Below, one piece after another: positions 1-44,024 of a DNA stretch of 64,000 bases. The position numbers were made by a program, and so were the translations under genes. The notes beneath the pieces are model-generated. The model saw only the letters and a list, made by a program, of their open reading frames with translations. It ran no database searches and had not been told where the DNA came from. The stretch is taken from positions 89,404,001 through 89,468,000 of the forward strand of contig OZ024744.1 in the NCBI GenBank assembly GCA_964016885.1. The letters run 5' to 3'. Source of the DNA: Eledone cirrhosa (Eukaryota). Positions within the stretch are counted from its first letter, which is position 1; every line of letters starts with the position of its first letter.

Positions 1-819
1 AATAAAGTTAATATATCTGAGGGTACAAGGTACCCCTAGAAATACATAGATTGTCTATGATTCAAGGTGGTTCTATGGTAATAATTTGATATACCAGAAC
101 TTAATATCAAGATAAGCAGAACAAGTAAAATTCAACCAATTTTTCAAAATAAATCAAAATTAATTTACAATTAAAATTAATCAAAATTTAAAAATATAAT
201 ATAAATATTTACCTATTCAAATGGCCCTTACTGTACAGTTTCACTTTGCAAAACATTAGATATCACATGGATATTAATGGAAAAACAAAGATCATCAGAG
301 AAGCATTTTCCTTTCCTAGGGTTAAAAACCTCAGGAACGATAAAATATATGACCTCGTCTCCAACTGACACAGGTCTGAAAGGTCGTAAAAGTGACCCGT
401 ATGTACGCTGGTGTGAAGTGAAGGCGGGAAATCGTAGACTTGTTGTCTATAGTCGCCACTAAAAAAATTAGCAGCTAGATAGAACGACAGATTTGTTCTC
501 TACATAACGGAGAATAATGAATAAAGTTAATATATCTGAGGGTACAAGGTACCCCTAGAAATACATAGGTTGTCTATGATTCAAGGTGGTTCTATGGTAA
601 TAATTTGATATACCAGAACTTAATATGAAGATAAGCAGAACAAGTAAAATTCAACCAATTTTTCAAAATCTAATGTTTTTCAAAGTGAAACTGTACAGTA
701 AGGGCCATTTGAACAGGTAAATATTTATATTATATTTTTTAATTTTGATTAATTTTAATTGTAAATTAATTTTGATTTATTTTGAAAAATTGGTTGAATT
801 TTACTTGTTCTGCTTATCT

Positions 820-821
<2 letters not shown>
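1..821 (-). mobile_element. Penelope-like pseudo-LTR cassette (direct plus inverted copies) carrying a hammerhead ribozyme
   Basis: 1-149 is repeated at 520-668; 669-821 is the reverse complement of about 109-261; hammerhead at 225-301; abuts (TA)n at 822. Confidence 0.7.
225..301 (-). ncRNA. Type I hammerhead ribozyme
   Basis: Minus strand: ctct CTGATGA tCTTTG...CAAAGt GAA ACTGTACAGT A aggg; palindromic stem III. Confidence 0.75.
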
Positions 822-908
<87 letters not shown>

Positions 909-1342
909 TAAGTCACGCTTTTAATTTTATTAACGGACATTATAAAACTAAATGCGATGGCACGTTGTTTATTCAATGCTACTACCTACATTAGTAAGGA
1001 GTCTGCAGCAAAAAAATAAAAACTAGGTACATTCTATAATCTACATTTCCCACAGGTTATTAATCTTGTTCCCACAATAAAACAAAGACAGGAGAGTTAA
1101 CATTAACACTAAATGATTAAAGTTGAAAAGTCGTTCACTTAAGCAAACTGTTCAAAGAATACTTAATTGGCTGATATGAACTGTCGTCCAACAGACTCCA
1201 AGATAAGTGCTTAGCTGTCTAGATGTTTGTATGTGTATGTGCGTACACGCCTGTGTTAGAGAGTGGGTTAGTGAGTTAGTAAGTAGATTTGCACACCGAC
1301 AGTGTAATGTGTGCAAATGTGTGCATGTGTGTGTGTCAATGC

Positions 1343-1454
<112 letters not shown>

Positions 1455-1979
1455 AGGAGTGTAGGTGCATGAACATAAACGTGTGTGTGTGAATGTGTGG
1501 GTTTTTCGCCACTCACGATTTAAGGTTTAGGTTAGTGTTTCGTGTATTTGAAAGCAATTTACTTATCAGAACTTCTCCTTGGGAATGACTGACTGGACTT
1601 AGTGCTGATTCCACCGTTGGCGATTCCCACGGACAAATTAGGCACTTAGTGAAACACTTCTTAAGCAGCATTAGTCGGCCGATTTATTAAGGAGGGAGAG
1701 ATAGACAGATAAAGCGAGAGGGAGAGAGAGGGGGGCAGGGGGGAGAGAGAGAGAGACCAAAGCAGCTAAGAAAGTAGTTAAAATCTTTTAATTATTTACT
1801 GCCTATCGCTGTTCTCTTGTTACTCGTTAAAAATATACATATTTCTGGCGACAAAAGTTCAATCTTTAATCTGGGTAGTAAGTACTTTGTTTCTGCCAAA
1901 CTTATATTCTCTTTTAACTTAACTTAATTGTTTCTGAGAAAATATCAATATTTTTTTATGCCAAGTATTTTCTAAAAGT

Positions 1980-2105
1980 CTTTGTTGTTATTGTTGTTGT
2001 TGTTGTTGTTGATGGTGGTGGTGGTGGTGGTGGTGGTGGTGGTGGTGTTGCTGTTGTTGTTGTTGCTGTTGTTGTTGGTGTTGTTGTTGTTGTTGCTGTT
2101 GCTGC

Positions 2106-2142
<37 letters not shown>

Positions 2143-2144
2143 GC

Positions 2145-2176
<32 letters not shown>

Positions 2177-2312
2177 CTGCTGTTGCTGTTGCTGTTGTTG
2201 TTGCTGTTGTTGTTGATGTTGTTGCTGCTGTTGCTGTTGTTGTTGCTGCTGTTGTTGTTGTCGCTGCTGCTGCTGTTGCTGTTACTGTTGTTGCTGCTGT
2301 TGTTGCTGCTAC

Positions 2313-2351
<39 letters not shown>

Positions 2352-2370
2352 CGCTGTCGCTGTCGTTGTT
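1980..2370. repeat. (TTG/CTG/GTG)n trinucleotide microsatellite
   Basis: Direct inspection; explains the poly-Thr and poly-Leu ORFs. Confidence 0.95.
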
Positions 2371-2627
2371 CGGCAGGATGTGAACTCAGAACGCAAAAAC
2401 ACAAAACAAATATCCAATGCTGTATCGTCTCTGCGAAATTGACCGCCTAATTTAACAATTAAGAAGTGATATTTGTTTTCTTCATTTAGTTTTTAATCAG
2501 TTAATTTAGCTTTTATTTTCTCTGTAATCACACACAGATTCTGTCTCAACGATTTCTTCTACTCCTTAGTTTGACGTTGTTCCATGTTATGTAAATCTAT
2601 ATATAAATTTGAACGACTTCCGTCCTT

Positions 2628-2822
2628 CCGTCACGCACGACATATGACTGAGGTAAAAAAAAGGTGATGAGGTCACGCACTAGAGATGACTGAGGAAGGA
2701 AGGGTGATAACGTCACGTTTTAGAGATAACTGAGGAAGGACGGGATATGACGTCACTCACTAGAGATGATTGAGGAAGGAAGGGGTGATGTCGCCACACA
2801 CTAGAGATGATTGAGGAAGGAG
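2628..2822 (+). repeat. ~46-bp degenerate tandem repeat, about 4 copies
   Basis: Unit about cgtcacgcactagagatgactgaggaaggaaggggtgatga. Confidence 0.85.
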
Positions 2823-2990
2823 GACGCCATGCTTTGCAGCATAGAATTATGGTCCTTTACGGTCTGAGGTCAAATCCCGCCGAGTTTAACTTTGCCTTTC
2901 ATCCTTACGGGGTCGATAAAATAAGGCACCAGCAACGTACTGGGGTCGATTTAATCGACTTTCCTTCTCCCCACCAAATTACTAGCCTAA
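2822..2990 (+). mobile_element. 5'-truncated tRNA-derived SINE (dominant family A)
   Basis: ggacgccatgctttgcagc...gaggtcaaatcccgccgag...ctttcatccttacggggtcgataaaata, as in the many other copies. Confidence 0.85.
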
Positions 2991-3181
2991 ATTACTTATA
3001 CTAAAAATCATTATAATCCGACTCTCCAAAAGCTGTATCAGATTTCTTTTTATGAAATAAAGGATTCTCAAGTTCTCAATCGGATAAGTAATTTCCAACT
3101 ATGACGGTTCTTTGTAAATTCTCACAAACCATGGTTTGTAGGAATTCCCCAAATAATGACATGCTTGAAATTTCCTCTATA

Positions 3182-4760
3182 AATTCTCGGGTCACAAATA
3201 ACAGGGGGTTTCGAATAAGCAGAGGGTTGGAATAAGCAGAGGTTTGGAATAAACAGGGGGTTGGAATAAACAGAGAGTTGGAATAAACAGGGGTTGGAAT
3301 AAACAGGGGTTTGGAATAAACAGGTGGTTGGAATAAACAGGTGGTTGGAATAAACAGTGGGTTGGAATAAACAGTGGGTTGGAATAAACAGTGGGTTGAA
3401 ATGAACAGTGGGTTGGAATAAACATGTGATTTGGAATAGACAGAGAGTTGGAATAAACAGGGGGTTGGAATAAACAAGGGGTTGGAATAAACAGGGTTGG
3501 AATAAACAGGATTGGAATAAACAGAGAATTGGAATAAACAGAGAGTTGGAATAAACAGGGGTTGGAATAAACAGGGGGTTGGAATAAACAGGGGGTTGGA
3601 ATAAACATGGGGTTGAAATAAACAGGGGTTGGAATAAACAGGGGTTGGAATAAAGAGGATTGGAATATACAGGGGATTGGAATAAACAGAGAATTGGAAT
3701 AAACAGAGAGTTGGAATAAACAGGGTGTTGGAATAAACAGGGGGTTGAAATAAACAGGGGGTTGGAATAAACAGGGGGTTGGAATAAACAGGTTTTGGAA
3801 TAAATAGAGAGTCTGAATAAACAGGGGGTTGGAATAAACAGGGGGTTGGAATAAACATGGGAGTTGGAATAAAAAGAGGGTTGGAATAAACAGAGAGTTG
3901 GAATAAACAGGGTGTTGGAATAAACATGGCAGTTGGAATAAACAGGGGGTTGAAATAAACAGAGAGTTGGAATAAACAGGGGGTTGGAATATACAGGGTG
4001 TTGGAATAAACTGGGGGTCGGAATAAACAGAGAGTTGGAATAAACAGGGGCTTGGAATATACAGGGTGTTGGAATAAACTGGGGGTTGGAATAAACAGGG
4101 GTTTGGAATGAACAGGGGAGTTGGAATAAACTGGGTGTTGGAATAATCAGAGAGTTGGGATAAACAGAGAGTTGGAATAAACAGGGGAGTTGGAATAAAT
4201 AGGGGGTTGGAATATACAGGGTGTTGGAATAAACTGTAGGCTGGAATAAACAGGGGATTGGAATAAACAGGATGTTGGAATAAACTGGGTGTTGGAATAA
4301 ACAGAGGCTTGGAATAAACTGGGTGTTCCGAATAAACAGAACGTTGGAACAAACAGGGTGTTGGAATAAACTGGGGGTTGGAATAAACAGGGGGTTGGAA
4401 TAAACAGGAGTTTGGAATGAACAGGGGGTTGGAATAAACATGGGGGTTGGAATAAGCAAGGGTGTGAAATCTGTAATTTTCTTAGGTTGTCCCCGTTGAT
4501 TTTTCTCGAATCCAGAATTAGACGTTTAGTTTACATATTGAGACTCCAAGCCATCCTATTTATTTCATATCGACGTATGGAATTTCTAGTAATGTACTTT
4601 TTTTGTCATTCATAATGTTTGTTTGTTTTTTAATGTATAAAGAAAATGCTACCACTTAAAATAAAATTGAGAGATAGACTAACAAAATTTAATAAGCGGA
4701 AGGGGATATATTAAAAATTATCAAGCGGGGGTGGGGACAATTATTAGCGATCCGAGAGTA
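3182..4760. mobile_element. Putative non-autonomous TIR DNA transposon containing a minisatellite
   Basis: Left aattctcgggtcacaaataa vs right end reverse complement tactctcggatcgctaataa (15/20 match). Confidence 0.5.
3222..4457 (+). repeat. ~18-21-bp minisatellite, core GTTGGAATAAACAG(G/A)n, roughly 60 units
   Basis: Direct inspection; produces the repetitive PVYSN/LFIPT ORFs. Confidence 0.95.
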
Positions 4761-39061: not shown

Positions 39062-39556
39062 GAAACATGCCTGCGTGTAGATTCTCTATATCACATAAAA
39101 ATACACATACACACACACACACATATACACACATACACACACAAATACATATACATAGATACACATGCATATGCATATGCATACAGCTACACGCATATAG
39201 ATTCTCTATACTACATAAACAAACACAAAAATACACACACACACATATATATATATATACATACAGACACACACACACATATATACATACAGACACACAC
39301 AAACACGCATGTCAATACAAATAAACGCAACAACATTGATGGTGACCACGCAGCAAACGATAACTGCGGTAGCAACAACGCCGACAGATAAACTAACGAT
39401 ACCTATATATATATATCAACGGTATACATTGATTTAGAAACTAAATATCAGTTTGTATTTCTTTTCTTGATTTATTATTTTAAACTAGCAGAAAAACCGC
39501 CCTCGGATACAGGCCGAAGCTGTAGTTCATATATATACAGTATGCCTCCACCCAAA

Positions 39557-40960
39557 ATGTGTAGGTGTCACGACAAAAAGCACCCAGCCCACACTATAAA
39601 GTGGTCGTGTAGGTGTCACGACAAAAAGCACCCAGCCCACACTGTAAAGTGGTCGTGTAGGTGTCACGACAAAAAGCACCCAGCCCACACTGTAAAGTGG
39701 TCGTGTAGGTGTCACGACAAAAAGCACCCAGCCAACACTGTAAAGTGGTCGTGTAGGTGTCACGACAAAAAGCACCCAGCCCACACTGTAAAGTGGTCGT
39801 GTAGGTGTCACGACAAAAAGCACCCAGCCCACACTGTAAAGTGGTCGTGTAGGTGTCACGACAAAAAGCACCCAGCCCACACTGTAAAGTGGTCGTGTAG
39901 GTGTCACGACAAAAAGCACCCAACCCACACTATAAAGTGGTCGTGTAGGTGTCACGACAAAAAGCACCCAGCCCACACTGTAAAGTGGTCGTGTAGGTGT
40001 CACGACAAAAAGCACCCAGCCCACACTGTAAAGTGGTCGTGTAGGTGTCACGACAAAAAGCACCCAGCCCACACTGTAAAGTGGTCGTGTAGGTGTCACG
40101 ACAAAAAGCACCCAGCCCACACTGTAAAGTGGTCGTGTAGGTGTCACGACAAAAAGCACCCAGCCCACACTGTAAAGTGGTCGTGTAGGTGTCACGACAA
40201 AAAGCACCCAGCCCACACTATAAAGTGGTCGTGTAGGTGTCACGACAAAAAGCACCCAGCCCACACTGTAAAGTGGTCGTGTAGGTGTCACGACAAAAAG
40301 CACCCAGCCCACACTGTAAAGTGGTCGTGTAGGTGTCACGACAAAAAGCACCCAGCCCACACTGTAAAGTGGTCGTGTAGGTGTCACGACAAAAAGCACC
40401 CAGCCCACACTATAAAGTGGTCGTGTAGGTGTCACGACAAAAAGCACCCAGCCCACACTGTAAAGTGGTCGTGTAGGTGTCACGACAAAAAGCACCCAGC
40501 CCACACTGTAAAGTGGTCGTGTAGGTGTCACGACAAAAAGCACCCAGCCCACACTGTAAAGTGGTCGTGTAGGTGTCACGACAAAAAGCACCCAGCCCAC
40601 ACTGTAAAGTGGTCGTGTAGGTGTCACGACAAAAAGCACCCAGCCCACACTATAAAGTGGTCGTGTAGGTGTCACGACAAAAAGCACCCAGCCCACACTG
40701 TAAAGTGGTCGTGTAGGTGTCACGACAAAAAGCACCCACCCCACACTGTAAAGTGGTTGTGTAGGTGTCACGACAAAAAGCACCCAGCCCACACTGTAAA
40801 GTGGTCGTGTAGTTGTCACGACAAAAAGCACCCAGCCCACACTGTAAAGTGATCGTGTAGGTGTCACGACAAAAAGCACCCAGCCCACACTGTAAAGTGG
40901 TCGTGTAGGTGTCACGACAAAAAGCACCCAGCCCTCACTATAATGTGGTCACGACAAAAA
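39557..40960 (+). repeat. 48-bp satellite, about 29 copies
   Basis: Unit gtgtaggtgtcacgacaaaaagcacccagcccacactgtaaagtggtc. Confidence 0.98.
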
Positions 40961-41174
40961 GCACACAGTACTCACTCTAAACGAGGTTGCCGTTAGGAAG
41001 GGCATCCATCTGTAGAAACCAAGCCAAAATCAGTTCTGCAAGACATGGTCACCTCACCTAGCATTGCCCATAACAGGACAACTCCTGTAACCCATGCTAG
41101 TGTGGAAAAATGGACGTAAAACGGTGATGATGATGATGATGATGACGATGACGATGACGATGATGATGATGATT

Positions 41175-42362: not shown

Positions 42363-42416
<54 letters not shown>

Positions 42417-42545
42417 GTAATCTGAGTTTTTCGAATATTAATAATAACGTTCGATTCATTTGCAATTATGCAAACAAGCCTCAATTTTATAGCCATGTCA
42501 GTAGAATGAACACTTTCTTCTTGCTCTTGTGTTGGCATGTGAACA

Positions 42546-42595
42546 GAACTGCAGACACTAATGTTTCTGGGTATCACCCTTCATCAGTACAGCTC
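42546..42595 (-). ncRNA. Type I hammerhead ribozyme
   Basis: GAGCTGTA CTGATGA aGGGT gat ACCCa GAA ACATTAGTGT C TGCAGTTC. Confidence 0.85.
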
Positions 42596-42660
42596 ACTGT
42601 TCACCTGCCAAACTGTCAGAGCTAGTGAAAATATATGCTATTGTCAAAAATGCACAGTGA

Positions 42661-42760
42661 CTGATCGGCCCGATTTGCATATTAGGAGACTGGCTGATCA
42701 GTCAGATCTGCATATTAGCAGATCCACTGATCAGCCAGATTTGCATATCAGCAGACTGGC
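42661..42760. promoter_or_regulatory. Three 33-bp repeats each carrying an octamer motif (ATTTGCAT/ATCTGCAT)
   Basis: Motifs at 42673, 42706 and 42739, upstream of the minus-strand hammerhead; function inferred only. Confidence 0.4.
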
Positions 42761-43024
42761 CAGTCAGTTTCCTGTATACGAGCGATAAATGGCCGGCTTT
42801 GCCAAATTCAAATAAAAACGAAAATGTCGCTCTACATGGCTGAATACAATAAATGTAATCTGAGTTTTTCGAATATTAATAATAACATTCGATTCATTTG
42901 CAATTATACAAACAAGCCTCAATTTTATAGCCATGTCAGTAGAATGAACACTTCATTCTTGCTCTTATGTTGGCATGCGAACAGAATTGCAAACCAATCG
43001 AATGTTATTATTAATATTCGAAAA

Positions 43025-43210
43025 GGCGATGGATTGGCAGTATCGGTAGAGGGTCGGACGCCATGCTTTCCAGCATAGTTACGTCCCTTTACGATCTGAG
43101 TTCAAATCCCGCCGAGGTTGACTTTGCCTTTCATCTTTACGGGGTCGATAAAATAAAGTACCAGTAATGCACTGGGTAATTGCTGGCCTTGTGCCTAAAG
43201 TAGAAACAAT
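43025..43210 (+). mobile_element. Full-length family-A SINE with TSD
   Basis: ggcgatggattggcagtatcgg...aaacaatt; TSD attattaatattcga(a/g)aa. Confidence 0.92.
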
Positions 43211-43415
43211 TATTAATATTCGAGAAACTCATTTATTGTATTCAGCCATGTAGTGCGACATTTTCTTTTTATATATATATATATATATACGTGTGTTGTA
43301 TTGAAGCGAATAACTATGTGTATACTCTGGAATGTATTCTACATTATCTATTGAGTAGGCTGAAATACAACCGGTCCTGTCATTGTTAAATACGGTGGGT
43401 CCGTCAACTCCTTAT

Positions 43416-43454
<39 letters not shown>

Positions 43455-43455
<1 letters not shown>

Positions 43456-43645
43456 ACGAAGGAAATGTGGTAAGGAACCAGGTGGACCATAACGCACCAA
43501 AGTACTCAATACTTGAGGTAGTAGAGTGGGTAATAGGAACCAGTAAGACCCCGACAGCTGAGCTCAAGCCGTTTTGACGGCTAATTCTGGACTCAGAATT
43601 AGCCGTCGAAACGGCTTGAGCTCAGCTGTCGGGGTCTTACTGGTT

Positions 43646-43651
<6 letters not shown>
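43455..43651 (-). mobile_element. pLTR fragment with fold-back palindrome (43533-43650) containing a hammerhead 3' half; shorter copy at about 25228-25297
   Basis: GACGGCTAATTCTG gact CAGAATTAGCCGTC GAA ACGGCT tgagctc AGCTGT C. Confidence 0.68.
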
Positions 43652-43737: not shown

Positions 43738-44024
43738 TATAGTGAAATAAAATAACAAGGACGATTGGTTACTCCTTCATTACGTTTATTGGTTGGTGAC
43801 GCGCGTTTCGCCACTGATCAGCTCAAAGTTCGATCTTGAACTGATCAGTGGCGAAACGCGCGTCACCAACCACAAACGTACTGAAGGAGTAACCAATCGT
43901 CCTTGTTATTTTATTTCACTATAATACACTCTGTCTAGCTCTACACCTCGACACTAAAGTGAACCTAAACATCGAGTGCTCACTCGGGTGAACCTACAGT
44001 AACTCCAAGTTACACTCGCTGGAT

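Follow-up and report, generated by a model that had tools for sequence, protein, structure and literature searches.

A small non-coding repeat inserted into a (TA)n microsatellite

We analyzed a 64,000-nt window of the Eledone cirrhosa genome (assembly GCA_964016885.1, contig OZ024744.1, positions 89,404,001 to 89,468,000 of the forward strand), and all coordinates below refer to this window. At 42412 to 43270 lies a single insertion of a 438-nt non-coding repeat with (TA)n on both sides, which is one copy of a small, protein-free mobile repeat. Along the locus, a (TA)n target microsatellite (42372 to 42411) is followed by a 580-nt arm of 1.3 units on the minus strand (42412 to 42991), an arm on the plus strand (42985 to 43270) and a second (TA)n stretch (43271 to 43290). 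Here, an arm is a stretch that matches the unit in a single orientation; reverse transcription would begin at its 3' end and stop at its 5' end. Unit positions are numbered from the first base 3' of a predicted ribozyme cut (+1), with position 438 written as 0; for the unit at 42554 to 42991, the window coordinate is 42992 minus the unit position.

As the initial annotation had it, the repeat unit measures about 438 bp and contains no open reading frame. A 146-nt direct repeat within the main arm (42411 to 42556 and 42849 to 42994, 95% identity) has a spacing of 438, and the same unit, from predicted cut to predicted cut (42554 to 42991, minus strand), was present at the 255 + 30 loci that we fetched from the genome; the longest stop-free stretch in 42412 to 42991 is 62 aa in the sense and 87 aa in the antisense direction. 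The 3' end of the main arm falls at unit position ~142-143 (priming site A), and its second, 5' pass through the unit (42850 to 42991, minus strand, unit +1 to +142) is unlike the 3' pass at sites 25 and 84, both of which are polymorphic in the family. The inverted arm extends from unit position 87 to ~177-180 (priming site B) and includes a tail of ~35 nt at about 43237 to 43270. The initial annotation closed the feature at 43265; the inverted arm is indeed present, but it runs to ~43270 and is split by a SINE that inserted later (43025 to 43208, plus strand, with many copies in the window) between duplications of 18 nt (43007 to 43024 and 43209 to 43226, 17 of 18 positions identical).

The two arms meet head to head at 42985 to 42991. 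The second copy had been described as stopping exactly at the predicted cut and switching strands via TGCA. The spacing agrees with this (42553 + 438 = 42991) and there is short homology at the junction, but the overlap is 7 nt long with one mismatch to the direct copy: base 42987 (+5) agrees with the inverted arm and disagrees with the direct copy, at a position that is G in 252 and A in 9 of 267 read-through copies. Because of this overlap, and because base 42987 fits the inverted arm, the arm end can be placed anywhere from +1 to +7 (42991 to 42985). One locus with an end somewhere in 7 of 438 nt is weak evidence, and the claim therefore rests on a family-wide count. Contigs of runs X1 and X3 have TA-rich loose ends at 42849, and the junction of the window copy was spanned by none of the run contigs listed.

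Three 33-bp repeats (42673 to 42746, minus strand; unit positions 246, 279 and 312) each carry an octamer-like motif (ATGCAAAT/ATGCAGAT), marking them on sequence grounds as a possible internal promoter element; they may resemble the snRNA-type promoters of newt satellite 2. At two loci, L062 and L088, these repeats have expanded into minisatellites. SINE insertions across the family cluster at unit position 109 (window 43007 to 43024), where 20 of 30 SINE-associated breaks resume. Nearly all of these SINEs lie in the same sense, and their lengths and duplication sizes differ; position 109 is likely a target hot spot matching the ATT-rich 3' end of the SINE.

A type I hammerhead motif with a predicted cut site

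Read by hand, the minus strand at 42546 to 42595 has the layout of a type I hammerhead, with a predicted cut between 42554 and 42553: an 8-bp helix I, CUGAUGA, a 4-bp helix II, GAAA, a short helix III of 3 bp with a 4-nt loop, and GUC. The features of the type I layout (CUGANGA, GAAA, NUH, three helices and an open helix I) are all present. Since no Rfam hammerhead model matched a 201-nt query, even at E ≤ 10, and no hammerhead appeared in the best 150 of 220 rows of another Rfam search, the ribozyme call, first made in the initial annotation and upheld here, rests on motif layout and not on a family match. The core is intact in 168 of 224 complete copies; its divergence is 2.3%, against 3.0% elsewhere, a difference that does not discriminate among copies 95 to 98% alike.

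Helix I is predicted to extend around the hammerhead, with unit positions 381 to 403 paired with +2 to +22 (42530 to 42612, minus strand; fold z -3.85), and a circular fold predicts it as well. For the monomer, the active structure is predicted at -10.2 kcal/mol and a misfold, in which the core pairs with helix III, at a minimum of -16.4 kcal/mol. The helix III stretch is fully self-complementary, with a predicted self-duplex of -8.8 kcal/mol. Because the monomer is predicted to misfold and helix III is self-complementary, the hammerhead, as modeled, may need a dimer for cutting; our predicted folds agree with the dimer-dependent hammerheads described in parts of PMC4209133.

Sampling of the repeat family

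Copies were drawn from the same 3.0-Gb genome by DNA queries, with the best 40 matches per query scored from 126 to 3,885 first-look candidates; the family comprises at least thousands of fragments. We fetched 255 loci and later 30 more (L306-335), in which most segments were 95 to 98% identical to the family majority. The longest arm measured 973 nt, and 3 of 366 exceeded 800 nt. Arms spanning two hammerheads occur (for example at L007, L168 and L316), and among the fetched loci, again the best 40 matches per query, we found partial tandems and no long tandem array. Of 144 head-to-head insertions, 128 have the motif TATATATA no more than 44 nt from one or both outer ends, against 12% of background windows.

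Left out of the counts were the window copy, the two loci with expanded 33-bp repeats and 30 index arms from a query starting at the cut (biased by design). Segment breaks that trace to a SINE insertion or to slippage in the repeats were dropped as well, as was any end adjoining a SINE or the edge of a locus, and duplicates sharing a junction sequence were merged before counting. An arm counted as at risk from the 5' edge of the query that had retrieved it, and a partner arm from 20 nt off its 3' end. Expected values assume a uniform stop rate in a sample that consists of best matches and is not random, and both ends of a junction were treated as independent observations. Head-to-head junctions supplied 276 of the 366 ends in the first count.

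5' ends accumulate at the predicted cut

In the first count, of 366 ends from 197 loci, positions 0 to +2 held 19 ends where 3.12 were expected. This was the best 3-nt window of the 438 (P = 2e-9 uncorrected, about 1e-6 corrected), and +1 was the commonest single position, with 10 ends, or 15 when overlaps were allowed. Positions +1 to +20 together held 58 ends against 22.7 expected, with 213 arms at risk. Loci fetched after the peak had been noticed (L175-255) reproduced it, with 9 ends against 1.18 expected at 0 to +2 (P = 4e-6), and had no excess at 11 to 20. A third set of 59 new ends (L306-335) contributed 0 ends at 0 to +2, where 0.27 were expected from 13 arms at risk, and 4 against 1.9 at +1 to +20 (13 to 17 at risk). 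Over all 425 pooled ends, the counts were 19 against 3.41 at 0 to +2 (P = 4e-9) and 62 against 24.8 at +1 to +20. Truncation points across genomic copies, which the initial annotation proposed to plot, are thus not random with respect to the cut.

The stop rate climbs toward the cut, from 1.1x at 21 to 30 through 1.8x at 11 to 20 to 3.1x at 1 to 10, and upstream of it amounts to 1.5x at -9 to 0 (not significant) and 1.0x at -19 to -10. Against a background of ~0.6% per nt, this corresponds to 5 to 6x at 0 to +2 and 2.5x at +1 to +20. About 10% of arms end at 0 to +2, the excess in 0 to +20 amounts to ~19% of arms at risk, and roughly three arms in four continue past the predicted cut. We conclude that the excess of ends likely records ribozyme cutting in living cells. 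The earlier proposal that reverse transcription reached a self-cleaved 5' end and then switched template is supported in part by the pile-up of ends, with the amendment that the effect is partial.

A reference-edge artifact was rejected as the source of the peak, as a rotated reference gave 19 of 19 identical end calls. Copies that read through the cut bear no scar of end-to-end template jumps: indels amount to 0.2% at -2 to +3 and 0.9% unit-wide. The strongest predicted hairpin region had no stop excess (0.2 to 1.0x), local fold energy was unrelated to stops (rho 0.04), and 37 other 4-mer palindromes had no excess of ends (0.99x). A smaller second peak of 8 ends lies at +14, in a GCATGC palindrome. 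Upstream of the ribozyme, a start-site peak was not significant (12 ends against 7.2 at 376 to 385, P = 0.06). Head-to-head junctions account for most of the sharp peak, since ends joined to flank or by a jump numbered only 2 against 0.7 at 0 to +2, which is not significant.

The base just upstream of +1 ends is A in 10 of 10 cases (L028, L034, L035, L108, L110, L118, L202, L225, L231 and L247), against 33 of 86 at comparable ends, and may be a non-templated nucleotide or reflect a joining preference; the window copy has T there. In two single cases, at L056 and in a joint of run X2 (1854-1913) on L019, the sequence passes directly from the cut into the 5' strand of helix I. The landing points are positions 402 and 381 and the ribozyme core is deleted, as if the reverse transcriptase (RT) had hopped across a cut but still-paired RNA.

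Head-to-head pairs combine two arm starts

Arm 3' ends fall into two classes, at ~143 (137 of 354) and ~160-190 (147 of 354), the latter centered at ~176-180. Among 145 head-to-head pairs, 96 had both ends classified and 49 had at least one unclassified end; 91 of the 96 paired one ~143 start with one ~180 start, and 5 had both starts in the same class. This strict one-of-each pairing is the observed pattern, and its cause is a matter of interpretation. Each arm holds at least 15 nt absent from the other in 41 of the 145 pairs, and the remaining 104, the window locus among them, are nested and do not discriminate between models. Junction overlaps were 1 to 4 nt in 104 of 183 cases in the first set. 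Partner arms share family variants beyond random expectation (56 of 63 against 57% at site 42).

A second cDNA, primed at the opposite end of the target and linked to the first through short homology, explains the inverted arm better than RT fold-back does. The initial annotation derived this arm from a template switch, which accounts for neither the 91 of 96 one-of-each starts nor the 41 non-nested pairs; a final switch onto the partner cDNA is compatible with the data. A related arrangement is known from L1 twin priming, in which both target ends prime synthesis and microhomology joins the resulting inverted segment. There, the internal site of the second priming varies and the arms are free of overlap, whereas in the 438-nt family the arms begin at two fixed sites ~35-37 nt apart and overlap in the sequence that they copy.

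The template RNA

Stops at the cut were more frequent in second passes through the unit (8 of 39) than in first passes (11 of 134; Fisher P = 0.04), as were stops in +1 to +20 (22 of 50 against 36 of 163, P = 0.0035). At inherited variants, the passes within an arm match in 84 to 91% of cases, compared with 57 to 82% for random pairs. They disagree at 8 of 51 (site 42, a transversion), 6 of 65, 5 of 49 and 7 of 64, against 5.2% over all bases, and the two passes of the window copy differ at 2 of 4 variant sites. These data are best accommodated by a linear RNA that exceeds one unit in length and has been cut at the 5'-most hammerhead but not at the inner one. Circles, or seamless switching from one RNA to another, may also play a part.

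A monomer circle of ~440 nt as the only template is disfavored. The second pass stops at the cut more often, which speaks against such a circle because it has no end there, and the passes carry different variants. A rare four-site haplotype occurs 6 times, in 4 of them paired with a different haplotype in two-pass arms (L010, L015, L025 and L028) and in either order, which hints at a source of mixed units or a dimer template.

A probable non-autonomous Penelope-like element of retrozyme type

The dispersed 438-nt repeat is best read as a non-autonomous Penelope-like element of retrozyme type. It combines a partial tandem with an inverted, 5'-truncated copy, has a 30- to 40-nt tail on one end (91 of 96 pairs having one of each 3' class) and occupies AT-rich or microsatellite targets, as do Penelope-like elements; as in retrozymes, its non-coding unit falls within ~150 to 450 nt and carries a type I hammerhead. 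The unit encodes neither an RT nor a GIY-YIG ORF and is not an autonomous Penelope-like element. The element itself is ordinary in kind and is of interest for what its copies tell about mechanism.

Candidate autonomous partners are present in the genome. We scored 150 of 10,596 GIY-YIG candidates; 8 of 8 scanned ORFs matched RVT_1 and 6 of 8 also GIY-YIG (Pfam), with RT plus GIY-YIG ORFs of up to 938 aa. In 50 GIY-YIG loci drawn from the 150 scored, unit sequence was nowhere part of an autonomous element, and two of these loci held it only as unrelated neighboring copies. The PF01541 loci contained other hammerhead families, none matching the unit, and the flanks of 5' ends had no common sequence. 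At three GIY-YIG matches (L286:2809-5622, L287:2488-5019 and L288:1775-5062), RT-containing frames stay open for 938, 844 and 1096 codons; these are possibly recent autonomous Penelope-like elements. Hammerhead-like motifs of other families, some with a long helix III, occur near Penelope ORFs at L265, L288, L291, L295, L296 and L298.

Relation to known elements

Metazoan non-LTR retrozymes have been described as non-coding units of 150 to 450 bp with a type I hammerhead, low GC and a proposed Penelope origin (PMC7229834; bioRxiv 10.64898/2026.07.22.740005, both in part). The 438-nt unit resembles them in its lack of coding capacity, hammerhead layout and low GC, but where those retrozymes form tandem arrays, the copies fetched here are dispersed 5'-truncated arms in head-to-head pairs. 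Retrozymes seem to lack promoters according to parts of a review (PMC7761336), whereas the present unit carries octamer-like repeats. With Penelope-like elements, as far as described in sections of PMC8557442, PMC3846280 and PMC11167929, the family shares a pLTR, an inverted 5'-truncated copy, a one-sided tail of 30 to 40 nt, microsatellite or AT-rich targets, a hammerhead in the repeat and two internal RT starts; it differs from endonuclease-positive members in lacking an ORF.

In vitro, Penelope protein cuts and extends both target strands, with two internal starts bounding the tail (PMC11167929, in part). For the anole element, sections of the same source report that hammerhead cleavage is dispensable in vitro and that no RNA-seq reads end at the cut; in contrast, genomic ends of the 438-nt family mark the predicted cut. 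A parallel is the R2 retrotransposon, whose HDV-like ribozyme cut sets the 5' junction of copies, with chance microhomology varying the junctions (PMC3774820, in part). A ribozyme cut shapes 5' junctions there and probably does so here. R2, however, has another ribozyme, belongs to another element class and is site-specific and autonomous, and its cut defines the full-length end, while the cut predicted here accounts for a minority of ends. In full-text searches of main articles, we found no comparable junction-end count for Penelope or retrozyme families.

A model of insertion and its alternatives

We regard as probable a mechanism in which a Penelope-like RNA, partly self-cleaved, is copied into arms from two separate primings. 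An RNA longer than one unit would be made, and its hammerhead would cut part of the time. By analogy with Penelope biology, the RT/GIY-YIG protein of an autonomous element would then cut both strands of the (TA)n target, and each broken end would prime cDNA synthesis at unit position ~143 or ~180, in keeping with the observed pairing. The excess of stops would reflect run-off of RT at the 5' terminus left by cleavage, together with some trimming, and the two cDNA ends would be joined head to head, as seen in the junctions, mostly with 1 to 4 nt of overlap. For the window copy, a second-pass run-off would have been joined to a partner arm that stopped at 87.

The peak at the cut could also come about with the RNA uncut, if RT stalled, or joining were preferred, in helix I (+2 to +22) or at short palindromes. 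Helix I begins at the cut by design, which confounds the two effects; the excess is spread over +1 to +20 with its second peak at the +14 palindrome, and three junctions link +1 to 82 through TGCA. However, stalling should peak where RT enters the helix, at about +22, where the rate is near background; a stronger hairpin at 254 to 302 has no excess, TGCA at 280 and 313 has 0 ends and at 247 two, and 12 ends at 0 to +2 come from junctions overlapping by at most 1 nt (1.9 expected). We consider stalling unlikely. A transcription start near +1, driven by upstream octamer repeats, would likewise give the RNA a 5' end there; octamer-like motifs do lie 120 to 190 nt upstream of +1, and the surplus of second-pass stops is what the 5'-most end of a linear RNA would give. 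Yet the mode sits on the nucleotide right after the conserved NUH triplet, the peak is also present in first-pass arms, and no extra G precedes the +1 ends, all ten having A, which makes a start site quite improbable.

Self-priming on an antisense template has been proposed for head-to-head inverted copies (PMC3846280, in part), and the inverted arm might accordingly derive from fold-back of one cDNA or from an antisense template. Containment of one arm in the other, at the window locus and in 104 of 145 pairs, and the variants shared by partner arms fit such an origin, but fold-back on its own cDNA fails for the 41 pairs because each arm holds sequence that the other lacks, so that the model is largely refuted for these; nor does it predict the pairing of ~143 with ~180 starts, and an antisense template would not result in stops at the sense-strand cut. 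We judge this origin a still slimmer prospect than a start site. Finally, the peak might be inherited, with a few source loci or segmental duplicates that already ended at +1 having been copied. In its favor, there are segmental duplicates (L003/L004), and three junctions share the +1/82 configuration; against this, duplicates with the same junction sequence had been merged, and the ten arms ending at +1 range from 126 to 586 nt and are joined to flank or to seven different partner positions. Inheritance therefore seems very improbable.

We lean slightly toward the more specific reading that the hammerhead cuts in vivo, setting the 5' end for a fraction of the RNAs, and that every head-to-head insertion is the product of two RT molecules, each primed by one of the broken target ends, at two fixed RNA sites ~37 nt apart. 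The role of Penelope-type hammerheads is described as unknown in parts of PMC7761336, and cutting in vivo, if true, would be the first in vivo role for them; together with two primings, it would give one mechanism for the pLTR, the one-sided tail and the inverted copy. The value of the analysis lies in two findings, the accumulation of ends at the predicted cut throughout the family and the pairing of arm starts as one of each class. A short, young, high-copy family makes arm formation testable by junction counting, and the count can be applied to any Penelope or retrozyme family.

Neighboring features

Two further near-perfect inverted-repeat inserts lie between (TA)n stretches at 43455 to 43650 and 43740 to 43920 and probably represent other Penelope families inserted head to head within this microsatellite-rich region. 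Both arms of the second contain CTGATCAG...GAAACGCGCGTC, resembling a minimal hammerhead. On the other side of the locus, at about 39500 to 41000, we observed a homogeneous tandem array of 48-bp units that are ~99% identical to one another.
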